DNA of 17,296 nucleotides from a bacterium (GCA_965233585.1 CBDDTI010000011.1:1-17296); one strand, 5' to 3'. Counted from the stretch's first letter, positions 3,493 to 16,754 are shown. Translations and numbers: made by a program. Notes: a model not told the origin generated them from the letters alone.

Positions 3493-3500
3493 GCGAGCAC

Positions 3501-4048
3501 GAACGGGCGGAAAGTCCGGGACTCTGTTTTGTAAACGATATTTACTTTTAGAGTTTTAAAGTGTTACTCAAACACTCAAAGAGGAGGCTAGAGGACTGAA
3601 GTCCCTGAGCTTCTAAGTAACACTGAATTTATATTTCTAACCTCGCTTCTGAGGTTAATTTTACTATATACATAATATATACAAAATAGGAACAGAAATA
3701 GAAAGAGGTAAAAAATACCCGTGGATCATGGGGATGTAATCCGGGTCATTGACATGCTTCTTATGCATAGGTGACCGCAAGGGACGATGAGCCATTATCA
3801 CTGGCTCTATTGTCTAGCCATGGGACACGGTAAATGCATTAGGAGAAAAATGGGCTGGCTTTTCTAGCCTCTATTTTTCTTTTGAAGGAGTCAAGGTGAC
3901 GATTTTAAGCGACGTTTTACGATGGGCAAAGTACAATCTTTATGGAGACAAAATACTCTATGTTTTTCTCACTCATTGTTTTTGCACTTCATTCTCGCCT
4001 TCTAATCTTCACACTAAAAATATTCATGAAATATTGCTGGTCCCTTCA
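3501..4048 (-). repeat. 3' LTR (outer terminal nt missing or mutated)
   Basis: On the minus strand it begins TGAAGGGACC at 4048, right after CTTGGGGGCATA. The reconstructed LTR is TGAA...TTCA, i.e. canonical TG..CA with a short terminal inverted repeat. Confidence 0.94.
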
Positions 4049-4060
4049 TATGCCCCCAAG
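4049..4060 (-). promoter_or_regulatory. Putative short polypurine-tract (plus-strand primer) region
   Basis: Minus strand CTTGGGGGCATA lies immediately before the TG of the 3' LTR. The purine run is only 5 G. A longer purine-rich run (AAGAAGAAGAAGTTAGAAAG) lies at 4078-4097. Confidence 0.5.
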
Positions 4061-4712
4061 GAGAATTGGAAAGCTTGCTTTCTAACTTCTTCTTCTTAGG
4101 AGAACTAACTAAACATGTCGAGACTTCCACGATGATAGTGATGTCCAGGTACGCATGAGTCCTGGGTAGCGCGTGCGTTCTTCGGAGGTCTTGTTTTCGA
4201 CATCACTGATCGACATCCGATCGATTCGGATTCTTTCTGTTCCATTGGATTTCCACTGATTTGGATTCTTAATAATTCTGGTATTCTGGTATTTTGATAA
4301 TCGGAATCATCAATTAGTTGTGGTCGCAATTGGGGTAATTGCGCAGTAGCGGTTTGATAATTGCGGCAGATGAGAACTGTGTGCATGGTTGCTAATGATT
4401 TGGTGTTTTCGGGACGACAAGATGTTTGAAGACACAATCTGGACGCTGGATCAGAACAGGGCTTGATTGATTATGGATGCTGATTATCAATGTGCTTCGT
4501 TGAGAAACGAAGGGTCTGCCGGGTGATCAATTCGGGCTTCGCCTGTGTTGGTCTCAGGTTGATTCAGAGCGGATCTGCTTGTCATCTTACGGTTAAGAGT
4601 GTTGGAAATTTATTTGTGGTGTTTGATGACTTGTTATTGCATCTAACCGACAATTAAGCGGTTATGATCTTACTGACCATTTCACTGGTCACGTATTAAG
4701 CATAGATTACTC

Positions 4713-7700
4713 TTACGGCGGGCCGTCGAGAGTATATCCTGGTTGTGGAACGGGAGACTCGGCTAGAGGTGCCTGAGGATAAACCGTTCTTCCACTTGTC
4801 CGGACAGCAGAGTCGGACACATAACTACTTCCTTCGAATTCAGGCTTCCGAATTGGTAAAAGTCTAGGCATGCTCGGAGGCATTTCAGATTGAGCTATAC
4901 TTGAGGAAGGAGGAGTTACATATGGAGGAGGAGATTTGTCCAACCTCTTAAAAGCTGTGACATCTCGATTAAGAGCCTCTATATTTGACTGCACTCTACG
5001 AGTAGATGCTAGTCGCTCTTCCTGCTTAGCTAACCTTTCTTCCTGCCTTCGCACATGGCGGTTCAGCATCTCCGACATTTCCTGTCGTGAGGCTTGTCCT
5101 TCCGGCGAGTTTGGATCGTCGGAATCAGAAGTTTTGAGGTCGTCAATACAACCACAACTAAGGACACGTCTGATGTTCTCACCCATAGTCCTTCTTTTCT
5201 TAGTTGGACTTTCTGTAGGATCAGTATCAGCTCTTCCAGACGCGGCTTTGCGTCGTCGTTGAACTTTCTGATAGTGATGCGTGAACAACACTTCTGTACA
5301 GAATGACCACGCCAATTGTGGCGAACAGCCATGGGCTCTATGTATATACCCACAATTCATGAGTACCTTAAACAAATACCAGACTATACGGCCTACTATA
5401 AAAAGACCAAAGATGGTGGAGAAAATCTCGCCTAGTCCGCGAATAGCTCCCCAAATTTTACCAAGGATAAAAGAGTGCCATGACCCACCCGGTAATGTGT
5501 AAGATGGAAACATCAGCTTAGGGGTGATGTACTGCCCCGGGTTAAGGTTTCCAACCTGGTCGGCCAATTGGTGTACTACCACTTCTTGGCGACGGTTGCC
5601 TTCTAACCACGTTATAAGGTCATCTACCGCATCAGGGTCATATACTCCTCCCTTGCTAAGGTCTATGTCGTTAGCTGGATCAAATAAAACCTTCCTTTTT
5701 AAGGATTCCAGATCAAGGGTACCAGGAGGTTCCGTGATCGAAAGCTGAGGCGTTACGGCAAACCATTGACCAAATATATCCTTATACCTAGCAAAAAACT
5801 GTGATAGGCAAGGGACCTTTTTGGCAACCGAGGTAATTCGGTGCGTCAGAGGTTCAATGTAAAACCTAGGAGCTACTACTTCTTCTCCATCCTCCTGGGT
5901 AAAGGATGTAAGAGTATAGTTATTTTGTGCTACTTCAACCGGGAGGGCGTCGTAGCATGTTTGGGCTTGGATAGCCGCTACAAGTCGAGGTCGACATTTG
6001 TAAAAATAAGCCACTTCTCCAGCTGCGGTTAGGTAGTTAGAACCACCTAATCGGTATGTGTGGAAATTAGGCATTTCGCGGTCCAAGAAGTGTTCAGTCT
6101 TGGTCTTGCGAAGATTCTCTTTGCACTCGTCATGCAAAATTGAGGCAAATTCGCGACGAAGATTACGGGTTATTTCGTGATATACGAAATCATCCCGATT
6201 TGTAATAAAATTAGATAGTTTAAGTTCGTCTTTAGGCAATTCCCTATCGACAAGGTCGCGATCTGGGATTCCGTCAATCATCGTATCCCTGATTAAGAGA
6301 TCTGGATAATTTGTCACCAAAAATTTCTGGTCGCATTCGACTTTGGATCCTTTGATGACAAAACGAACGTGAGAACTATCAGTTGACATAGCCACCTTAT
6401 GTGACTTAATTGTCAAACCTGCTGAGTCGTATTTAACTATCTGTCCCTTAAATCTACGGACATGATATAAAGGGCAATGAGACTTAATGGGGACTCGCCA
6501 AACATATGTTACATCTCCACCGACACAATGTTCATCCTCAATGGGGCAAGTCAACCGGACGTTATTGAAATGTGCAATAACTCCGTCATCGTCTTCCCTA
6601 AGGATAAATTTTTCGTCTCGAAAGAGGATTTCTTCCGTAACATACATGACCATATTGTCAACTAGCACACCGTCAACAAGGAGCCTTCCGCCGCTGCAGG
6701 TAACTTGATTGCCATCCCAGCCATCATAGGCGTTGGCAGTACCGAGAGCGAAATAGCTGATTTCCCTTCTGGTGTTTTTGGCGATACTGTAAGTTTTGCC
6801 ATCTTTGGCACGATACTGCCCCATTTGTAGTCCTCGGCACTCATTATTGGCCAAGACCTTGGGTCGCCTGAAAAAGGTTTCTTGTGGTAAGGGACTCGCG
6901 TGATCTGCGTTTCCGCAGTAGTAGGTGAATTGAGAAATGTATCTCTCACACCTAGATCCTGAGAATTCCCTTCTAGTCTCATATTGGACTATTTGAAATT
7001 GGGTTTCAGACTCTATCTCATATGTGTCCTCATCGCTAGACTCATTGGGTATACAAGGATCGTGTATGAAAGAACTTATAGGCTTAACTTCCATAGGTTT
7101 GGAACAGTCATATCCTACAAGAAATCGTCTATTGACCCGAGCCTTAAGATCACGGAACTGTTCTTTGCTTAGTCCGAGTTCGGTGAGGGCGTCAGGGGCA
7201 ACTTGGCGCCGTTCGCGCGACGCTCGTTTCTCGGCAAATTTACAAGCCGAATCGCGGGCTAAGTCAGTAGTATTGACTTCGGCCAGTTCATGACAACCTG
7301 CATCCTGGAATGGATGATAGGGTTCCGGCTTCCGGTGAGGAATGATCGGAGTAGCATATTTTTTACTCGCCTTAATGCGAGGATCACGGGCCGTAGAAGC
7401 CTGTTGGCGCCTAGGGTCAGCAACTTCCGCAGCTGCAGTGCGAATAGGTTGCTTTTTAGGCTGTTTAGCACGAGTAGCCTGTTTTCGAGGCTTCTTCGTC
7501 CGGACAGGTTGTTTTACCAATGTTCGAGGTTTTTTGGTATACAACTCGCCTCTTGCCTGGTTGTGAGGCTGCCAAGAATACATTTTCGGAAAGTATGTTC
7601 CAACTTTCCACCATTCGGTACCCGAAGCATTACGGGAATTCGTCATCCAGTTAAGGGCTTCGTATTGGACAAAATGACGTTTGCCCTTGGGGTTGTCTAT

Positions 7701-7763
7701 TTTGCCTTGAATTAGGCAAGATAAGTAGATAACTAAAAGAGAGCAGCGCTGGTAGCTTTTCAT
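4713..7763 (-). CDS. env: Envelope-like membrane glycoprotein, chuvirus-G / gB-like class III fusogen type (1016 aa from ATG 7763; ORF open from ATG 7880, 1055 aa)
   Basis: Third ORF position. Signal-peptide-like MKSYQRCSLLVIYLSCLIQG, furin site RERR (7206-7217), Cys-rich ectodomain starting GYDC (7104-7115) with Q-I-V-Q..C..YYCG..H.S, N-glycosylation sequons, hydrophobic TM region about 5285-5480, then a cytoplasmic tail. Confidence 0.85.
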   Translation of the reverse strand: MKSYQRCSLLVIYLSCLIQGKIDNPKGKRHFVQYEALNWMTNSRNASGTEWWKVGTYFPKMYSWQPHNQARGELYTKKPRTLVKQPVRTKKPRKQATRAKQPKKQPIRTAAAEVADPRRQQASTARDPRIKASKKYATPIIPHRKPEPYHPFQDAGCHELAEVNTTDLARDSACKFAEKRASRERRQVAPDALTELGLSKEQFRDLKARVNRRFLVGYDCSKPMEVKPISSFIHDPCIPNESSDEDTYEIESETQFQIVQYETRREFSGSRCERYISQFTYYCGNADHASPLPQETFFRRPKVLANNECRGLQMGQYRAKDGKTYSIAKNTRREISYFALGTANAYDGWDGNQVTCSGGRLLVDGVLVDNMVMYVTEEILFRDEKFILREDDDGVIAHFNNVRLTCPIEDEHCVGGDVTYVWRVPIKSHCPLYHVRRFKGQIVKYDSAGLTIKSHKVAMSTDSSHVRFVIKGSKVECDQKFLVTNYPDLLIRDTMIDGIPDRDLVDRELPKDELKLSNFITNRDDFVYHEITRNLRREFASILHDECKENLRKTKTEHFLDREMPNFHTYRLGGSNYLTAAGEVAYFYKCRPRLVAAIQAQTCYDALPVEVAQNNYTLTSFTQEDGEEVVAPRFYIEPLTHRITSVAKKVPCLSQFFARYKDIFGQWFAVTPQLSITEPPGTLDLESLKRKVLFDPANDIDLSKGGVYDPDAVDDLITWLEGNRRQEVVVHQLADQVGNLNPGQYITPKLMFPSYTLPGGSWHSFILGKIWGAIRGLGEIFSTIFGLFIVGRIVWYLFKVLMNCGYIHRAHGCSPQLAWSFCTEVLFTHHYQKVQRRRKAASGRADTDPTESPTKKRRTMGENIRRVLSCGCIDDLKTSDSDDPNSPEGQASRQEMSEMLNRHVRRQEERLAKQEERLASTRRVQSNIEALNRDVTAFKRLDKSPPPYVTPPSSSIAQSEMPPSMPRLLPIRKPEFEGSSYVSDSAVRTSGRTVYPQAPLAESPVPQPGYTLDGPP

Positions 7764-7843
7764 TGTGAAAACCAAAGTTAGATTGGCAGAAAATCTAATT
7801 GGCAACCCTCTTTTGTACTCGCGAATCAATCGCGTCGCGATCT

Positions 7844-10800
7844 TTAGCGATGTGCTGCGCATGGGCGAGTACGGGTACATTTAGCACAACGGTCTTGTAC
7901 AGTGTGCTGATTGCATGCTAGCCCGCCTTTGCAATTTTCGCAATGGGCTACGCACGTAAAGGAGTCAGTACAGCGCGGACAAACTCGAGGTTTGTTTTTG
8001 CGACCGGGAGGTCGCCCTCTCTTTTTGGGAGCAGGCTGTTCTGGTATAGCTTCCGTATCAAGTGCTGCATCTTCAGGAATGGTAGGCAACCTGGCAGGAG
8101 GTTGTGATACTCGCGGCAACTTGGCAGGAGGTTGAAGCATACTTGGTTCAACCACTGGAGCTTCGAGAGCCCGCTGGGGTTCTGGAGGTGCAGGAGCGGA
8201 TTTCGAAGGTTCCGTAGGAACTGGCTCGGGACTACTTTCAGGTATTTTGTCCCTGGGCAAATCGCTCGCTGGTAAATCCTCTTCAGGCTGACCAGTGGGT
8301 ATTGCATGTGGCAAGTTTTGATCGGTATCAAAAATATGCGGAGCAAAATCAGAAGCGGGAATTCGTCCCATTACTTCTTGATGCTCGAAGTAGGGTCGAA
8401 CGTCGGCAGCCGTTAATTCGACGGGGACGCCTAAGTTCGTATCAGGATCATTGACAAAACACTTTTTCAATCGATCGACTGCAGCCGTAGTAACTATCTT
8501 CTCTTTAGTCCATCGGCCGTAAGACTCGATTTCAAAGAGTGTGTTAGCTAAATTGCGAGTTACACGGTAAGGTCCAGACCAAAACGATTGGAATTTCCGA
8601 TTTAAGTTTGGATTTGGCCTGTCGGTGTATAGCCAGACAAGGTCATCGATGTTGATCTTGTGATGTCGTTCTCTATACAGCTCCTTCTGACGGATCACGT
8701 AAGAGTTCTGCCGTTCGGCGACGACAGCAAAAGCTTTAGCGAATTGATGCTTAAGCCGTTCAGTATATCGGTCTAAAGTTGTGGACTGGTCGGGAGGAGG
8801 CCCAGCGACCATGTCGACAGGAAGTCGGGCTTCACGACCGTGTTCTAAAAAGAACGGTGTGAACCCTGTGGTCCGATTAACAGAAGTTCTCATGGCCAGC
8901 AAAGTAGCCGGAAGAGCTTCGTCCCATTCGTCATCGAATTCGTGAATTAATGACGTTAGTCTACGCTTCATGGTCCGGTGAAACCGTTCGACCGTGTTGC
9001 TTTTAGGGTTGTACACGGGAGTGGTCGTGGTCCGAACATCAAAGGCCGCCATTGCGACTTTAAAGACATGAGCAATGTACGCAGGTCCATTATCAGAATG
9101 AACGACGGAAGGTACACCCCTGTCCGGAAAATAATCACGGACTAAGTGTTTGATAACCGTTTCAGCCTTTTGGTTTTTTACCGGCCAAGCAGTAAACCAT
9201 CGGGTATAGACATCAACGATAGTTAGAAGAGAAGTGTGTCCCTTTTTTGTAGGTTTTAATGGTCCTACAAAATCGAGGCATACTTTTTCTCCTGGGCTCC
9301 CGACAAGGTCGTACCCATAAGTATGGCGTTGCGCAGTCTTTCTAGCAAGACGTTGGCAACGGGGGCACTTAAATACAAATTCCCTGCAAACTGAGATTAG
9401 CCTTGGGAAGATGTACTTAAGCTGGACGGAATCTGCCAGGGAATTTCCCCCAGAATGGTTTTTGCCGTGCAGGGATGCGAGCACAGTCATTTGCAGATTT
9501 TCCGGTAGAACGATCCTGCTGTCTTTCTCGTTGGTATACGGAATAGGCAGTCGGACGAGGAGACCGTCTGGTTTTAATTGAAGGTATTCTAAGCAATCAA
9601 CATAAAACTTTTCGTCGGAAGTAAGAAGCTTATATTCCTGAGCGGTTGGTTTATGTTGCATTTTAACCCATTGTCTGACTTTGGACAAAACGGGGTCAGA
9701 TTTTTGTTTCTCAATTAAAGTCTCTTGACGAATTTCCTTAGGAGAGGGGTATTCATCGCTATAGGGAATTCGAGGGTCGATTTCAGTATCGGAATCGCTA
9801 AGAGAATCAAAATTCTCTTCAGGTTCCTGACCGTCGTCCTCTCTGGCCTCGCCGAGGAGTAATATCTGGTCGTCGGCTAGTACTTCTTCAGCTTCCCGTG
9901 AGGACAAAAAGGGAGCATGAGAAGCGCGAGAGAGAGAGTCTGCGTTACCGTGCTTAGTCCCAGCTCGATGCTGTATGTCGAACTCATAGGTACTAAGGAT
10001 TCTCAGCCATCTCATTAGTATCCCTTTAGGATCTTTCTGAGTTTTTAGCCAAGAAAGGGCGGAGTTATCTGTTCGTACAAGGAATTTTCTACCTGTGAGA
10101 AAAAACTTGTACGTATCGATAGCAAAGATAAGTGCCAATAATTCACCTTTGTGTGAAGCATATTGAGACTCACTTGGCTTCAGTCGCCTAGCATTAAAAG
10201 CGATGGGCCTCTCTACACCATTCTGGATTTGAGATAAGACAGTGCCGATCCCGTCATGCGAGTAATCGGTGTCGACTATGAAAGGTTCAGAGCTGTCAAA
10301 ATCCGGGTAGGCCAGTAGCTGGGGAGAAGTCAAAAGTTCCTTTAAAGCCTTGAACGAGGCTACTGCTTTTGGGTCTTCGGACAAGTTAAGCTTGCGTGAG
10401 CTTTCGCTTGCGCCCTTAAGGTGCGACATCAACGGGGCAGCAACAATGGCAAAATTTTGAAAATGACTGCGGTAATAATTACATTTTCCAAGGAAGGATC
10501 GCAAATCTTTCAAGGTGGTCGGTAACGGCCAATCTTTAATGATTTGGGAGAATTCGGGAGGTACGGCTACTCCCTTATCAGAAATGAGATGTCCCAGGAA
10601 TTTAACCTGAGTTTTTACCCAGTCCGTTTTTTCCATGTTGAGCCGCAAACCAGCTTTTCTTAGGAGCGTGAATACCTCCTTAATGGTGTCTATGTGGATT
10701 TTAAGATCTGGTGAGTGGATCAATAAATCATCAAAAAAGACAATCAGCTTGGTTTTTGGGATGTCTTGTAATACCTTGGTAACCAACCTGGCCCAAGTGT

Positions 10801-12346
10801 TTGGGGCGCTGGTCAGGCCAAATGGCATTCGACAAAATTGGTAGAATTTGTCAAGTGCGCAGAAAGAGAGTTTTTCCCTGTCGACTTCTCGCACGGGAAT
10901 AGAGTGGAACGCTTGAGCTAAATCGAGAGAGGTGAAATATTTACTATTTCTAAGATAGCTTAAAAGTTCGACTATATTTGGAATGGGAAAGGAATCTTTA
11001 CGAGTTACCGAATTTAGCATTCTAAAATCTACAACCCATCTCCATTTGCCATTCTTTTTTCGAACTGGGAGGAGTGGAAAATTCCAAGGAGAGATACCGC
11101 CAGAGCGGATTACTCCATCCTTGAGCCATGTAGCGATTTGTTCTTTTAGGGAGTCAATCAAGCCAGGGTTTATGGGCCTATTTTTCAACCTGATAGGAGG
11201 GTGACCTTTAGGAGTATAAACCGGGTGTTCGATTACGTCCGTTCCTCCACAATTACCTTCTCGATAAAAGACATTCCAAAAAATCATGATAAGATCTGCT
11301 AACTGTGCAGCAATATTAGGATTAGCCTGCAAGCCTGGACTGTTAGGGGCGTCTAGGATTTTGACTATATATTCTTTACGCCGAATAAAATCGTGAGGTT
11401 TTAACTTGGCGGAGGGAATATTGTTCATCCAAGAAGCGTCAGGTGCTGGATCAGATCCTATGGTCATGACATTATTCATGTCAACTGTTTTAGCGCTAGG
11501 TGCAGGAATCGCGATCGAGCCGATTATGCAATTGGTGCTAATGGTTATCGGGATTTCCGACTCATTAAAGAAATACACATTTAATTCATTAGATTTAGAG
11601 ACCGCGGTGGCTTGATCTAAAGAATTAATGCCAAAATATGTTTCATCCTGAGAAGGATGCTCTTTATTTAAACTTAGCGCGTGTACTTTATTGAGAAAAG
11701 AATTTTTATAGGAGAAAACAGTGTCAGTCTGGCTGTTGACAATTGCCTTTCCCGGAATAATAGCATTAATTAATTTTCCCGTGTGAGGAGGAATAGTTTG
11801 ACGAATTCTGTTGCTCACTTCGGCAGTTGAACTCGTGATGTTAATGGCGCCGACTCTTGGTAACTTCGACGCAAGTTGGCGGGCATGACTCATGTTCCTG
11901 TAGAGAGGAAACTGAAGTTGCTTTGAAGACCATACCAGCGTCCCTCGGGAGTGTAGCTGGTCCAAACCATTCTCGACCAGGAAGGGAAGAGAGATGTTAA
12001 GTCCGCATGACAGATGGCGAACAATAACCAACCTTGCGTTGATTACGTGACGTTGTCCGGATTCGTCGGTGAGTCCAAAACCAATCTTATTGATAATGCC
12101 GACAATATCCAAAGTAGATCCGACAAGGGCAGTTCCTACTGGAGGCCCCTGATACTTATCGTAGTGAGTAAGGCCAATCTTGGTGGCGACAGAAAGAGAG
12201 ATTGCGTTATAGAAGCTATTGCCGCTATCGACTAAGCCTAATACCATTGATCCACAAAGCTTGACAGGTAGAAGTTTGTTCAATGCTGTGGATTTTGATT
12301 GGAAGGAATTAATTAACTCCTTCATTTCTCGGACTGATTTAGTCAT
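7844..12346 (-). CDS. pol: Pol polyprotein, 1500 aa: aspartic protease, reverse transcriptase, RNase H, integrase
   Basis: Protease LVDSG (12221-12229). RT SPWNFPLLPVRKKNGKWRWVVDFRMLN, LDLAQAFH, MPFGL, FFDD (10727-10738). RNase H DTDYS..ELLAL..RTDNSAL..NADSLSR. Integrase HHCC (H-x3-H..CPRC), LDFVG / SDNG / VERFH catalytic triad and WSGPY. Confidence 0.98.
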   Translation of the reverse strand: MTKSVREMKELINSFQSKSTALNKLLPVKLCGSMVLGLVDSGNSFYNAISLSVATKIGLTHYDKYQGPPVGTALVGSTLDIVGIINKIGFGLTDESGQRHVINARLVIVRHLSCGLNISLPFLVENGLDQLHSRGTLVWSSKQLQFPLYRNMSHARQLASKLPRVGAINITSSTAEVSNRIRQTIPPHTGKLINAIIPGKAIVNSQTDTVFSYKNSFLNKVHALSLNKEHPSQDETYFGINSLDQATAVSKSNELNVYFFNESEIPITISTNCIIGSIAIPAPSAKTVDMNNVMTIGSDPAPDASWMNNIPSAKLKPHDFIRRKEYIVKILDAPNSPGLQANPNIAAQLADLIMIFWNVFYREGNCGGTDVIEHPVYTPKGHPPIRLKNRPINPGLIDSLKEQIATWLKDGVIRSGGISPWNFPLLPVRKKNGKWRWVVDFRMLNSVTRKDSFPIPNIVELLSYLRNSKYFTSLDLAQAFHSIPVREVDREKLSFCALDKFYQFCRMPFGLTSAPNTWARLVTKVLQDIPKTKLIVFFDDLLIHSPDLKIHIDTIKEVFTLLRKAGLRLNMEKTDWVKTQVKFLGHLISDKGVAVPPEFSQIIKDWPLPTTLKDLRSFLGKCNYYRSHFQNFAIVAAPLMSHLKGASESSRKLNLSEDPKAVASFKALKELLTSPQLLAYPDFDSSEPFIVDTDYSHDGIGTVLSQIQNGVERPIAFNARRLKPSESQYASHKGELLALIFAIDTYKFFLTGRKFLVRTDNSALSWLKTQKDPKGILMRWLRILSTYEFDIQHRAGTKHGNADSLSRASHAPFLSSREAEEVLADDQILLLGEAREDDGQEPEENFDSLSDSDTEIDPRIPYSDEYPSPKEIRQETLIEKQKSDPVLSKVRQWVKMQHKPTAQEYKLLTSDEKFYVDCLEYLQLKPDGLLVRLPIPYTNEKDSRIVLPENLQMTVLASLHGKNHSGGNSLADSVQLKYIFPRLISVCREFVFKCPRCQRLARKTAQRHTYGYDLVGSPGEKVCLDFVGPLKPTKKGHTSLLTIVDVYTRWFTAWPVKNQKAETVIKHLVRDYFPDRGVPSVVHSDNGPAYIAHVFKVAMAAFDVRTTTTPVYNPKSNTVERFHRTMKRRLTSLIHEFDDEWDEALPATLLAMRTSVNRTTGFTPFFLEHGREARLPVDMVAGPPPDQSTTLDRYTERLKHQFAKAFAVVAERQNSYVIRQKELYRERHHKINIDDLVWLYTDRPNPNLNRKFQSFWSGPYRVTRNLANTLFEIESYGRWTKEKIVTTAAVDRLKKCFVNDPDTNLGVPVELTAADVRPYFEHQEVMGRIPASDFAPHIFDTDQNLPHAIPTGQPEEDLPASDLPRDKIPESSPEPVPTEPSKSAPAPPEPQRALEAPVVEPSMLQPPAKLPRVSQPPARLPTIPEDAALDTEAIPEQPAPKKRGRPPGRKNKPRVCPRCTDSFTCVAHCENCKGGLACNQHTVQDRCAKCTRTRPCAAHR

Positions 12347-12366: not shown

Positions 12367-15300
12367 TTACTTCCTTTGCCGTCCAAACCTGGCGATTAGG
12401 TTTTCGTGGCGTTCCCGAAAGCGATGGAGTAGCGCTTGGGCGATGGGTAAGAGGTTCTGTCGCCGGAGTTGGCGAATTTGCTGGAGCGCTGCGTGGTTGA
12501 GACTGGACAATACTAGCGGTGGTGTGTCCTTCTGGTTGTCCCAACGTCGAGACATGCGGATTGGAGTGTTAATCCTGACAAAAGCCGTCAATTCTTTATT
12601 GAAAGCGGCACGCTCGCTGTCACGAAGAGCCCAGATGATTTTGACATCTTCTTCTGAAAAACCAAGGCGGAAGATATCTGGCAAAGCGAAATCGTCTTCA
12701 ATCGCGGTTTTCTCTAGCAGAACTGTAGCTTGATGCTCTTCAGCCTGACGATAGGCTTCAGGAGAGATTTGTGCGATGATTGGCAGGACGGTATTGAATC
12801 TGCTTCTCCGCCATGCGGCGTCAAGTGTTCTTCCTTTGTAGCACGTTCTACAACGGGAGCTAACGAAGAAATTGGTCATATATGCGATGGCAGGGTTGAC
12901 GAGCTCATCTCGCAAATGGGTAATAGTCTCGGGATGCTCGAAAATAAAGGCTTGTTCAAAAGCTTCAAACATAGCATGTAACGCATTCCTAAAAACCTTT
13001 TCGAGTTTTTCTCTGTTTACCGTGCTGCTGTTTGCATCGTGGGACTGCGTCTTGTCTCGCCTGGTGACCTTGACGTTAAATGATTGGATCCTGGAATTTC
13101 CTTTCTGGCGCAGGTCCATAAGATGTTGGTAATCCTGGAAGTAGGATTCGTAGAATAGATCAGGGCGAAGCCAGACAGCATCTTCGTTCCAGATATGGCT
13201 TTCCCTCTGCAGCATGATCATTGCGAAGGTCTTACAGTCTTCCATCGAAGCATTAGGTTTGTAGACCAGTTCTTGGCTCTCGTTGGTCGGCAATGTGGGA
13301 ATACTGATTTCTCCCGTTGCCACGTCGACGTCGGAATCTTCTTGAGCCTGAATGGGAGACTCGGGTCTTACCGCGGTGTCCTTGGAGGGTCTTGAGGTAA
13401 TTGTTAACGGAATTGAGGCTTCCGTTGAAAGTTTGGAAAGGTGCTGCACTGTTGTTTCCACCTTACGCTCGTAAGTGTCTGTGGAAAATGTAATCCTTAA
13501 GCCTTCCTTAGGCTTAGATTTATTCATCAGATGGGAGTGCGAGGCTGGCACTTGAATAGGAGTGTTAGGCATCTTTTTTCCACGCCCACGACTGATGCGA
13601 ACTCTAGGGGGCTGATTTGCAGCCTGACCATTGAGGGAACTTCCCTCAGCTTTAGACCTTGTCCTGGAGGAGGACCTAGATCTGGAGCGTGAGCGTCTGC
13701 TAGTCCTTTTAACAGGAGGTTGCTCCGGCATGGCGAATTCAAGCCCGACTTTGGGCTTATCAACAAGATGGTCAGAAGAAGCCACGGCTACCAAGTTTGG
13801 ATCAGATACCGAGGAAGTAGCGACCACTGTGTTGTGTGGCGCAGGTATCGGTTGGTAATAGATCCCGTTGATCTTTACGGGGCCGTTGGGTAAAGGCACA
13901 GTCGTCTGAGGAACGGCTGGATTGCTGACGGCAGGCAACGGCGGAAACGCTTCATCGGCTACTTCAGTTAAATCCATTTTGGTAATGTCTGGTGAAAATG
14001 GATTTATTTCAACCTTGGGTATCTGGATAGAAGAATCAGAGGGTTGAATGTCAGGACCGTCAAGTAACGCAATATCAGAAGGACTGAGAGCTGCGTAGTC
14101 CGATGAGAGACCTGGGGATCCTAAGGAGGATTCAAGTGTTTCGCGCAAACCATCGTTGGTGCATACACTGGTCTGCGAGGTCGTAGAGCCGGCATTACTG
14201 TGCTCATTCTTAGAATCTGATGTGCATTTTTCTGCAGGCGCACAGGGTGTTTCGACGTCTGTCATTATTACGTCTTCCTCTTCAAGCATGTTGCCTGGTG
14301 TTAAGACAAGTATGTGTGAATCAGAATGATGCTCATCTTCATCTGATTCTTCGGAAGAGGATTCTGCATAAAGCTGCATTAAGCTTTGTTCCACAACATT
14401 ACTGTCGTCATCGTCGGAACTTTTGTCTAAGGACACCCCTTCCATTTCTTCAATGGATCTTAGGAATTTCTTTTTGTCGCTTGTAGATTTGAAGCGTATC
14501 CTACGGGGTTGGTTCTTCTTCGCACCTGTCGGCCGTTTTTTAGCGGCGTTTGTTGGTGCGGGCTCCTGCTGCGCGCGGCAGTTGGAGTCGGAGTGCTTGT
14601 CAGTCTTATGCAAAGCACACCATTGACGTATGGCTTGAATTTTAACGTCTTCTACAGACGAATCGATCACCTGAATAGATGAGCCTTTGTGAGATGGTCG
14701 GGATAATGGGTGGCCGTTAGAGGCTGCCATCTTCCAAGCCAACGATCTTTGCCGTAGGGTTTGGTGTTCTGGGAAAATAGCGGCTGAAAACGCCATAGCC
14801 CCGTTAACTGCTTCCCTGAAGTTCCTCGGCAAAGGAGGGGTCCTAAGCTTTTCCTTTATTTGAGGAGATACTAGGCCAGTGATAAATTTATCCATTAAAA
14901 ATATGGATTGGTTTGGTTCTGTTCCCGGATAGGCACGATAGAACAGATTTTCGATGTCAATGGAATAGTCCTGTACAGGGACATCTTCTCTTTGACAGAA
15001 GCTGTTAAAAAGATTAACAGCTACCATACGGTTGCCTGAGGTATTGAATATACGATCTAGATGTTCTAGAAGTTCGGCTAAATCACGCATGGTGCAATCC
15101 TGTGAGATGTTTTTTGCCATTTCAGCGGCTTTATCTCTTAACAGGTGAATTGCAACTCGGCAAGCCTGGGGTTCTGAAGGCTGATAGAGATTGACACCGG
15201 AAAGGAATTGAGCAACCCATTGCGGGAATCGGCTCATGTCTTGTCCGTTGAAAGTGTCCATTCTGGCCGAGGAGCCAAAGAGCTTGGCTTTTTTAGACGC

Positions 15301-15849
15301 AATTTCGTCGTTACTTGAGAAAGTAACCCAGACGTTATTGCCGGCGATACCCATTCTGCGGGTAAAGGTGCCGTCATCGCTAGGAATAGCGGGATTGGGC
15401 CTAGGCCTATTTGGAGCCGGAGGGGCGGCTATATAGGAAGGCATAGTAGCATCTGGAGCCGGAGGAGTGGCGCCGTAAGGAGTACTAGTGGCACTGGGCA
15501 CTCGTGGAGCTACAGGAGGCGCTCTTGGGGTTGCTTGCGGTCCGACGAATTCGGTGGCGCTAAGCACATTAGTAACATCTTCTTTCAATGCATTAAGTTC
15601 GGCTCTGATTTTTAGAACTTCTTCTTTAAGCACTGAGTACCTAGCTCGATTGTATTCTACATACTTAGTGAGATAGGTAAAAAAGACTACTATACCAGGG
15701 GCTTGGTTGTCTAACGAACGTATAAACGTATTAAGACGGGAAGAGGACCAAGCTGACAAAGTAACGTCATTGATAGCGTCTAATAATGTAACATTGCTAG
15801 CGGCGCCGGGTGGCTCGGTACTAGGTGCTCTAGATTCGTCGCTAGGCAT
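12367..15849 (-). CDS. gag: Gag polyprotein, 1160 aa, with long C-terminal extension
   Basis: First ORF after the PBS. It has an N-terminal heptad segment (LKEEVLKIRAELNALKEDV), a Pro-rich linker and a retrotransposon capsid-like region (TFNGQD..FPQWVAQF..LRDKA..QREDVPVQDY..LFYRAYP..FITGL). A zinc knuckle variant C-x2-H-x4-H-x4-C lies at 14578-14619. Confidence 0.9.
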   Translation of the reverse strand: MPSDESRAPSTEPPGAASNVTLLDAINDVTLSAWSSSRLNTFIRSLDNQAPGIVVFFTYLTKYVEYNRARYSVLKEEVLKIRAELNALKEDVTNVLSATEFVGPQATPRAPPVAPRVPSATSTPYGATPPAPDATMPSYIAAPPAPNRPRPNPAIPSDDGTFTRRMGIAGNNVWVTFSSNDEIASKKAKLFGSSARMDTFNGQDMSRFPQWVAQFLSGVNLYQPSEPQACRVAIHLLRDKAAEMAKNISQDCTMRDLAELLEHLDRIFNTSGNRMVAVNLFNSFCQREDVPVQDYSIDIENLFYRAYPGTEPNQSIFLMDKFITGLVSPQIKEKLRTPPLPRNFREAVNGAMAFSAAIFPEHQTLRQRSLAWKMAASNGHPLSRPSHKGSSIQVIDSSVEDVKIQAIRQWCALHKTDKHSDSNCRAQQEPAPTNAAKKRPTGAKKNQPRRIRFKSTSDKKKFLRSIEEMEGVSLDKSSDDDDSNVVEQSLMQLYAESSSEESDEDEHHSDSHILVLTPGNMLEEEDVIMTDVETPCAPAEKCTSDSKNEHSNAGSTTSQTSVCTNDGLRETLESSLGSPGLSSDYAALSPSDIALLDGPDIQPSDSSIQIPKVEINPFSPDITKMDLTEVADEAFPPLPAVSNPAVPQTTVPLPNGPVKINGIYYQPIPAPHNTVVATSSVSDPNLVAVASSDHLVDKPKVGLEFAMPEQPPVKRTSRRSRSRSRSSSRTRSKAEGSSLNGQAANQPPRVRISRGRGKKMPNTPIQVPASHSHLMNKSKPKEGLRITFSTDTYERKVETTVQHLSKLSTEASIPLTITSRPSKDTAVRPESPIQAQEDSDVDVATGEISIPTLPTNESQELVYKPNASMEDCKTFAMIMLQRESHIWNEDAVWLRPDLFYESYFQDYQHLMDLRQKGNSRIQSFNVKVTRRDKTQSHDANSSTVNREKLEKVFRNALHAMFEAFEQAFIFEHPETITHLRDELVNPAIAYMTNFFVSSRCRTCYKGRTLDAAWRRSRFNTVLPIIAQISPEAYRQAEEHQATVLLEKTAIEDDFALPDIFRLGFSEEDVKIIWALRDSERAAFNKELTAFVRINTPIRMSRRWDNQKDTPPLVLSSLNHAALQQIRQLRRQNLLPIAQALLHRFRERHENLIARFGRQRK

Positions 15850-15904
15850 GTTTAGTTAGGTCTATAGTCTGTGAAGACTTAACCCCCGAACAAAAAAGGG
15901 CTCG

Positions 15905-15914
15905 GCTGCCACCA
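15905..15914 (-). promoter_or_regulatory. Primer-binding site, probably tRNA-Leu
   Basis: Minus strand TGGTGGCAGC starts 2 nt after the 5' LTR terminal CA. It is complementary to a tRNA 3' end GCUGCCA-CCA, which I recall from metazoan tRNA-Leu(AAG/TAG). The match is only 10 nt. Confidence 0.8.
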
Positions 15915-15916
15915 CG

Positions 15917-16461
15917 TGAACGGGCGGAAAGTCCGGGACTCTGTTTTGTAAACGATATTTACTTTTAGAGTTTTAAAGTGTTACTCAAACACTCAAAGAG
16001 GAGGCTGGAGGACTGAAGTCCCTGAGCTTCTAAGTAACACTGAATTTATATTTCTAACCTCGCTTATGAGGTTAATTTTACTATATACATAATATATACA
16101 AAATAGGAACAGAAATAGAAAGAGGTAAAAAATACCCGTGGATCATGGGGATGTAATCCGGGTCATTGACATGCTTCTTATGCATAGGTGACCGCAAGGG
16201 ACGATGAGCCATTATCACTGGCTCTATTGTCTAGCCATGGGACACGGTAAATGCATTAGGAGAAAAATGGGCTGGCTTTTCTAGCCTCTATTTTTCTTTT
16301 GAAGGAGTCAAGGTGACGATTTTAAGCGACGTTTTACGATGGGCAAAGTACAATCTTTATGGAGACAAAATACTCTATGTTTTTCTCACTCATTGTTTTT
16401 GCACTTCATTCTCGCCTTCTAATCTTCACACTAAAAATATTCATGAAATATTGCTGGTCCC
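15917..16461 (-). repeat. 5' LTR (outer 4 nt missing relative to the reconstructed 549-bp LTR)
   Basis: Matches 3501-4044 except at 16007 (g vs a at 3590) and 16066 (a vs c at 3649). On the minus strand it ends ...CCCGTTCA, followed by CG and the PBS. Confidence 0.96.
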
Positions 16462-16659
16462 AAATACATACAGGGGTTCGTCAAAAAATTTTTTTCGCCT
16501 CATACTCACTGTACTCTCCTAAAGTGATGAGAAAACCCATAAACAAAATAATAGATTAGACGGATATTGACGGCCCATTTGCCGTCAATGATGTGAGTGG
16601 CTAGAATCCAAAATTCTTACTAAAAATATATTGGACCTGAACATCTGTAGCCCAGATTT

Positions 16660-16754
16660 TCTCATCAGGTACAGAAAATCTCGTCAGGTACAGAAAATCT
16701 CATCAGGTACAGAAAATCTTGTCGGGTACAGAAATTATCACCAAGCTCAGAAAA
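16660..16754 (+). repeat. 19-bp minisatellite, 5 copies
   Basis: TCTCRTCAGGTACAGAAAA units at 16660, 16679, 16698, and more diverged at 16717 and 16736. Confidence 0.9.

Follow-up and report, generated by a model that had tools for sequence, protein, structure and literature searches.

The window is the whole of one 17,296-nt contig (C11) of a 12-Mb assembly, and its minus strand carries an LTR element of 12.96 kb (12,961 nt). This is an intact, env-carrying element of the Ty3/gypsy type, and its features are collected in Table 1. ORF2 contains the domains RVT_1 (E 4.2e-34, residues 428-586), RT_RNaseH (5.3e-28, 684-787) and rve (5.7e-17, 1018-1114), and ORF3 matches PF24664 with an E-value of 4.1e-50 over residues 253-891. 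ORF1 had no Pfam match in this element; PF14893 is precomputed on 7 of its 32 gag homologues, which show 45-99% identity and come from contigs of 7-138 kb. An in-frame TAA lies 9 nt upstream of the ORF1 ATG, and the gag start M-[P/Q]-[S/R]-D is common to four relatives. The 3' UTR runs for 664 nt, from the ORF3 stop (4713) to the 3' LTR. Env-carrying Ty3/gypsy elements with a gB/Chuviridae-like envelope are known in metazoans (PMC13524379), and the available text of that paper describes them as having LTRs, a tRNA-type primer-binding site, gag-pol-env ORFs and a Chuviridae-related class III fusogen.

Table 1. Features of the LTR element and of its two complementary sites, in window coordinates.
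Feature	Position	Strand	Description
3' LTR	3500..4048	-	549 nt; direct repeat; taken as TG...CA unit
Polypurine-tract region	4049..4063	-	RNA sense CTCCTTGGGGGCATA; abuts 3' LTR
Palindrome GAAAGCTTGCTTTC	4069..4082	-	May form a small hairpin immediately 5' of the polypurine tract (PPT); sequence reading
3' site	4101..4122	-	In 3' UTR; RNA-sense core CAUGUUUAGUUAG at 4117..4105
Conserved 3' UTR stem-loop	4137..4207	-	9-bp outer stem GUGAUGUC.../...GACAUCAC and inner CAGG/CCUG hairpin
ORF3, env-like class III fusion glycoprotein	4713..7880	-	1055 aa; PF24664 Monjiviricetes_fusion
ORF2, pol	7844..12346	-	1500 aa; RT - RNase H - integrase
ORF1, gag-like	12367..15849	-	1160 aa
5' site	15842..15863	-	RNA-sense core CUAACUAAACAUG at 15859..15847; gag AUG at 15849..15847
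Primer-binding site	15898..15914	-	RNA sense TGGTGGCAGCCGAGCCC; TGG-starting 17-mer, 2 nt after 5' LTR
5' LTR	15917..16465	-	Direct repeat; taken as TG...CA unit

The two LTRs are 99.6% identical over 544 nt (3501-4044 against 15918-16461, 12,417 nt apart, by BLAST). Their outermost 4 nt differ, with ATTT in the 5' LTR and TGAA in the 3' LTR (3500-3501, 4045-4048, 16462-16465), and the outer end of the 3' LTR is CG where the 5' LTR has CA. On reading the sequence, no target-site duplication was visible at the ends of the element, and the original flanks of this copy may have been lost through recombination. The primer-binding site is kept with small changes in all five leaders of the clade, and a search for its primer among 180 predicted tRNAs on the non-bacterial contigs gave no match, the best reaching 10/17. 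At the polypurine tract, TTGGGGG.A.ATGAAGGG.CC is common to all six 3' ends of the clade. Where this element has the palindrome, two relatives (C401:25130-25180 and C640:6920-6960) have TTAGAAAGC and GCTTTCTAA about 25 nt apart, and the elements of clade B, described below, have AACGTCC...GGACGTT at the equivalent place.

The assembly comprises 12.0 Mb in 747 contigs, compared with 1.3-9.7 Mb in the 87 related bacterial genomes searched. Many eukaryote-type LTR retrotransposons occur across it, and C11 is one contig of this kind. Such contigs look like host DNA binned with a bacterial genome, though the contamination was rated at 2%. Repetitive DNA flanks the element: four tandem units of 19 nt lie at 16653-16747, repeats in both orientations, inverted and direct, lie at 1-523 and 1187-1519, and part of 198-474 is similar to repeats on five other contigs.

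The first-pass annotation drew attention to a stretch of the 3' UTR said to be perfectly complementary to the region of the gag start codon. The 13-nt core CTAACTAAACATG (4105-4117) is indeed the exact reverse complement of 15847-15859, and the coordinates and counts given for both the core and its extension were confirmed. The word "perfectly" applies to the core and not to the extended 22-nt arms, which are complementary at 19/22 positions (86%) in an inverted-repeat search. The best local alignment of the two sites covers 17 nt with one mismatch (16/17, score 14). The 5' arm ends in the ORF1 ATG, covers positions -14 to +3 and follows the primer-binding site at a distance of about 40 nt. 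The two sites begin 57 nt (3') and 58 nt (5') from the inner edges of the LTRs.

The match is a sharp island, since complementarity along the same diagonal is 25-40% just outside the 22 nt. The sites are therefore not what visibly remains of a large inverted duplication, and a decayed one is disfavoured. Two coding explanations of the 3' site were also set aside. Its AUG opens a frame of 3 codons in C11 and of 11-28 codons in the relatives, with no common product, and on the opposite strand an ATG opens about 6 codons in C11 and about 14 in C408 (sequence reading).

An inverted match of this length is no rarity in an element of this size. Two exact inverted 13-mer matches were seen element-wide (12,961 nt), the shuffle mean was 1.55, and at least one was present in 78 of 100 shuffles. 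The other exact match (10478-10490 with 13482-13494) has both arms in coding sequence, in pol and gag, and fits the chance expectation. Length alone does not set the 13-mer of C11 apart from chance; its position is unusual. Complementarity scores were calculated by gapped local alignment and compared with random genomic segments and shuffles. For the leader (90 nt) against the 3' UTR (664 nt), score 14 was reached once among 1000 genomic segments and once among 1000 shuffles, and for the window from AUG-20 to +6 against the 3' UTR it was reached by none of 1000 genomic controls and none of 1000 shuffles. The match had originally been picked after a scan of the whole window, which carries a look-elsewhere cost, and it was therefore handled as a hypothesis and tested on relatives. 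Two other scorings were less useful. Folding the leader and 3' UTR as a duplex gave -40.8 for the observed pair, whereas the controls averaged -48.5 and 257 of the 300 equalled or bettered the observed value; because this produced long, loop-ridden duplexes without discriminating power, the local-alignment statistics were used. Ungapped scoring overlooks the bulged duplex of clade B described below (score 9, reached by 117 and 86 of 200 controls).

Two relatives in the same assembly, C408:5502-19973 and C164:8513-22950 (C164b), are full-length and intact. They are near-copies, with LTRs 99.5% identical, so that the full-length comparison has two independent lineages only, C11 on one side and C408/C164b (clade B) on the other. 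Against C11, C408/C164b have about 50% identity in gag, 70-73% in pol and about 64-66% in env. Partial relatives in this assembly are C193 and C696, which have the 5' end only, and C164:1-7124 (C164a), C401 and C640, which have the 3' end only. The distance from the env stop to the 3' LTR is 2.1-2.2 kb in clade B (C408:17384-19598, C164:8926-11052) as against 664 nt in C11.

Comparison of the AUG window with the element's own 3' UTR was set in advance as the test for C408/C164b. The region of their gag AUG reads ATACTCCATTATGCA, and their own 3' UTR holds TGCATAATGAGTAT. The pairing of ATACTC(C)ATTATGCA with TGCATAATGAGTAT has 14 bp and one bulged C, includes the AUG, scores 11, and differs in sequence from that of C11. 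In a first run, with 1000 controls of each kind, 5 and 4 genomic segments and 27 and 39 shuffles scored as high; in a second run, with 500 of each, the counts were 1 and 5 for genomic segments and 17 and 14 for shuffles. The test was weaker with the whole clade-B leader as query, where 47 genomic controls and 65-79 shuffles, out of 1000 each, reached the score. Taken alone, the clade-B match would be modest evidence. In all three full-length elements, however, the best complement of the AUG window across the whole 13-14.5-kb RNA is the 3' UTR site, with top and next-best scores of 14 and 8, 11 and 9, and 11 and 9, and in both lineages it lies within the last 170 nt before the LTR.

The arms are specific to their lineage. 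Cognate arms score 14 and 11, whereas the C11 leader scores 5-6 on the clade-B 3' UTRs and the clade-B leaders score 7 on the C11 3' UTR. When the duplexes are anchored on AUG:CAU, 7 of the 20 positions compared are pairs that changed on both sides and still pair, 6 are identical (3 of them the AUG itself), and the remainder are unpaired in one or both lineages. This table presumes that the 3' sites are homologous, because MAFFT did not place the 3' sites of the two clades in the same columns. It would be equally fair, on this comparison, to say that each lineage has its own complementary pair. Complementarity between the gag start and the 3' UTR thus persists with different sequence in a diverged relative. 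The claim made for C11 survives the check in relatives that had been proposed for it, given the assumed homology of the 3' sites. The symmetric spacing that was also reported is confined to C11: the distance from the 3' site to the 3' LTR is 52-56 nt there, 161-166 nt in C408 and 142-147 nt in C164b.

The partial relatives add a little to this picture. The C193 leader ATACCCAATTATGCA and the C164a 3' site TGCATAATGGGTAT can pair over 15 bp with a bulge (score 12), and relative to C408 a U to C change in the C193 leader is matched by an A to G change in the C164a 3' site. The LTRs of C193 and C164a are 88.5% identical, closer to each other than either is to C408. The pairing is suggestive only, since the two are not one element. 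The 3' site of clade B is preserved from C408 to C164a within a 3' UTR that otherwise aligns poorly. The C696 leader scored 8 and 6 against the clade-A 3' ends of C401 and C640, with no clear partner, and these ends are not established as cognate to it. A separate observation concerns the LTR of C193 (C193:13786-13800), which holds GCATAATTGGATATT, a 14/15 complement of its own gag-AUG leader; this may be chance, or a 3' arm located within U3 in that lineage.

Control elements were taken from the same assembly. Megablast gave 300 same-contig direct-repeat pairs, of which 22 were kept as LTR-like and as enclosing long ORFs. Ten of these rows were dropped beforehand as alternative pairs of the same element, as tandem arrays, or for having no gag-like first ORF (the second pairs of C61 and C231, the outer pairs of C233 and C408, C102, C448, C523, C599, and C653 twice). 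The 12 picked by eye were C11, C408, C164b and nine controls (C61, C68, C101, C212, C231, C233, C437, C476 and C640b, the second element of C640), which amount to about seven families because C68, C231 and C640b form one. None of the nine had a complement of its AUG window in its own 3' UTR; their scores were reached by 144-497 of 500 controls. Within this set the complementarity is restricted to the clade of C11 and clade B. A distant env-carrying element (C523:33633-42721) was considered as an outgroup and rejected, as it has no recognisable gag start.

Searches elsewhere found few relatives, and none whose DNA could be used in the comparison. For pol there were none in the genome or viral contig collections and one distant, partial metagenome contig, which has 32% identity and lacks a leader. 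Among the 63 other genomes of the order sample, pol had distant matches only, in 3, and gag had none in the 87 other genomes of the phylum sample. The primer-binding-site pattern had 4 + 1 matches in public contig collections, all without gag or pol, and the PPT and stem-loop patterns had none in viral contigs. Rfam gave no match at the gathering threshold, the 3' UTR stem-loop included. Matches in sequencing runs came from four runs of one study, with no RNA run listed.

These comparisons bear directly on the explanation by chance, in which one of the one or two expected inverted 13-mers happens to lie on the AUG and clade B supplies another coincidence of modest size. The shuffle expectation, the manner in which the C11 match was found and the whole-leader scores of clade B all agree with this, as does the folding analysis given below, which does not favour the duplex. 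They have to be set against the position-restricted result (1 in 1000), its replicate in the AUG windows of C408/C164b (1-5 of 500-1000 genomic controls), the location of the top complement of the whole RNA close to the LTR in both lineages, the nine control elements, none of which comes near, and the preservation of the clade-B site between C408 and C164a. On balance we regard chance as unlikely.

RNA folding gives a mixed answer. The isolated duplex is predicted at -17.9 kcal/mol in C11 and -14.3 kcal/mol in C408, and opening both sites would cost 7.6-14.6 kcal/mol, which leaves a predicted net of -2.7 to -6.7 kcal/mol. The net energies for the AUG duplex are thus modestly favourable in these models. 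Co-folding of the 5' and 3' segments, which had been suggested as a further check, went against the duplex: the minimum is without it in either lineage and uses other contacts, with a ddG of about -9 kcal/mol. The AUG region of C11 also closes a predicted local hairpin, which could be the competing state of a switch or could simply be the real structure.

Directly 5' of the 3' site is the stem-loop of Table 1, which occurs in all six 3' ends, in both clades. RNAalifold on the six relatives predicts 18 pairs for it, 4 of them with changes on both sides and none broken, but with one gap. As judged by this comparison, the compensatory changes in the stem-loop show that the 3' UTR adjoining the 3' site is under constraint at the RNA level. 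The stem-loop may serve in export or as a signal for packaging. Another candidate 5'-3' contact was also observed, between UUCGGGGGU in the leader (15877-15890) and ACCUCCGAA in the 3' UTR (~4185-4195), with equivalents in C408. This contact of a G-run with CCUCC is the one used by the co-fold minimum, and it is conserved in both lineages without covariation. The G-run of the leader has a local partner as well, the 3' flank of the primer-binding site, with which it closes a hairpin.

After this one comparative test, a functional 5'-3' pairing that includes the gag AUG is moderately supported by the sequence comparisons. We lean, if only slightly, towards reading the two sites as the arms of a selected 5'-3' RNA pairing that covers the gag AUG and resembles CYC5:CYC3 of Ty1. 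The arms would pair in the full-length genomic RNA, either within one RNA or between both RNAs of a dimer, and in vivo the helix would probably form with Gag as chaperone. Pairing would place the end with the primer-binding site and U5 beside the end with the PPT and U3-R, and the gag start codon would be inside the helix. The most likely use, by analogy with CYC5:CYC3, would be as an aid to the initiation of reverse transcription or to the first strand transfer. With the AUG enclosed in the helix, translation of the paired RNA would be poor, and lower gag initiation on it would be a coupled effect. Cyclisation and masking of the AUG, which the first-pass annotation had proposed as the functions of the duplex, are what we infer from its location.

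To our knowledge, Ty1 is the sole LTR retrotransposon in which genetic work has demonstrated direct 5'-3' cyclisation. There CYC3, at the 3' end, is the pairing partner of CYC5, which follows the primer-binding site, and initiation of reverse transcription recovers when compensatory mutations are made (PMC4974528, in its available text). As far as the available text of PMC4974528 and PMC7969010 describes it, the arrangement is like that of C11 in that a site after the primer-binding site pairs directly with a site at the 3' end, the primer-binding site is brought near the 3' end, and no tRNA bridge is required. Of the features of the Ty1 type, C11 has the two complementary sites, one following the primer-binding site and the other in the 3' UTR ahead of the PPT and LTR. 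For changes on both sides, the sample is small, consisting of one diverged lineage and one pair of a 5'-only and a 3'-only relative, with homology of the 3' sites assumed. The likeness is in the way of working only: because its pol domain order (RT-RNase H-IN) is that of Ty3/gypsy, the C11 element is not a member of Ty1/copia, and Ty1, which belongs to the other superfamily, differs from it in pol order and in the env that C11 carries. The available text of the Ty1 papers does not describe CYC5 as containing the GAG start codon, whereas the putative C11 helix contains the AUG. The function in Ty1 was shown genetically, and in C11 it is inferred.

In Ty3 itself the two ends are bridged by the primer tRNA, which is annealed to both through a bipartite primer-binding site (PMC11381356 and PMC4974528, in their available text). 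Ty3 is thus like C11 in being a Ty3/gypsy element whose ends are brought together for reverse transcription, as those sources describe it, and differs in the tRNA bridge; none would be needed in C11, because the two sites can pair directly. For env-carrying Ty3/gypsy elements, a limited literature search that included PMC13524379 found no report of 5'-3' pairing at the gag AUG, and the word "cyclization" does not occur in the available text of that paper.

Retroviruses and flaviviruses offer further parallels. The gag start codon of HIV-1 is occluded by a long-distance pairing, U5:AUG, that is linked to dimerisation and packaging. The AUG partner in HIV-1 is U5, on the same side of the genome, whereas in C11 the candidate partner is in the unique 3' UTR, outside the LTR; no U5 partner was found for the C11 AUG, the best complement element-wide being the 3' UTR site. 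HIV-1 also differs in having two separate contacts, whereas the one C11 duplex would do both jobs. In flaviviruses, the UAR sits beside the start codon AUG. The nearest functional analogy is with these viruses, whose cyclisation arms, like those proposed for C11, are located by the start codon; they are nevertheless unrelated RNA viruses that replicate with an RdRp and without reverse transcription, and the comparison is by analogy only. Their cyclisation elements, 5'UAR/3'UAR and 5'CS/3'CS, are regarded as a switch by which the genome alternates between translation and replication (PMC5101012 and PMC12168079, in their available text).

The pairing may also be real with a main role other than help to reverse transcription. 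It could serve translational control, with the 3' site titrating the AUG region off its local hairpin and so setting the output of gag, or genome dimerisation, with the 3' site joining two RNAs head-to-tail for packaging. The AUG would be inside the duplex in both lineages, the predicted local AUG hairpins would compete with long-range pairing, and the U5:AUG pairing of HIV-1 is tied to dimerisation and packaging. The 5'-3' contact between gag and U3-R in HIV-1 points the same way: sequences in the gag ORF pair there, unlike in C11, with the terminal 123 nt, and the contact is conserved despite sequence divergence (PMC1976439, in its available text). Yet the AUG is the one invariable part of the leader and may merely anchor the helix, and its common position in both lineages may be inherited and not independently selected. 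The present results do not separate such a role from the cyclisation reading, and we consider it rather improbable as the main one. Finally, the sites might play no part in RNA-RNA pairing and be instead a DNA-level or protein-binding motif, such as a host-factor or integrase-associated site, that occurs in inverted orientation by the inner edge of each LTR, or else what is left of a small inverted duplication. This is very unlikely: the symmetric placement in C11 fits it and an inverted repeat is equally two double-stranded DNA sites, but the sequence of a protein site would be expected to stay constant, whereas between these lineages it differs and the complementarity is retained, the symmetry is lost in the relatives, no extended similarity surrounds the core, and the opposite-strand ATG in the 3' site opens the few codons given above.

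The Ty1-like pairing that we prefer could be taken one step further. In this clade of metazoan env-carrying elements a single short helix might act as a two-state switch, between a local AUG hairpin in an RNA that is translated and a duplex with the 3' UTR in an RNA that is circular or dimeric and ready for reverse transcription and packaging; this extension is doubtful as matters stand. If true, the switch would merge in one element the roles played by CYC5:CYC3 in Ty1 and by U5:AUG in HIV-1.

A helix that contains the AUG would tie circularisation of the genome to whether an RNA is translated or copied, an open question in every retroelement whose single RNA serves both purposes. On the switch reading, the arms would co-evolve fast enough to be specific to a lineage, and this could limit co-packaging or recombination of RNAs. 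The arms are short and differ between lineages, and the idea is therefore testable by comparison. Elements of the env-carrying Ty3/gypsy type are widespread in animals.
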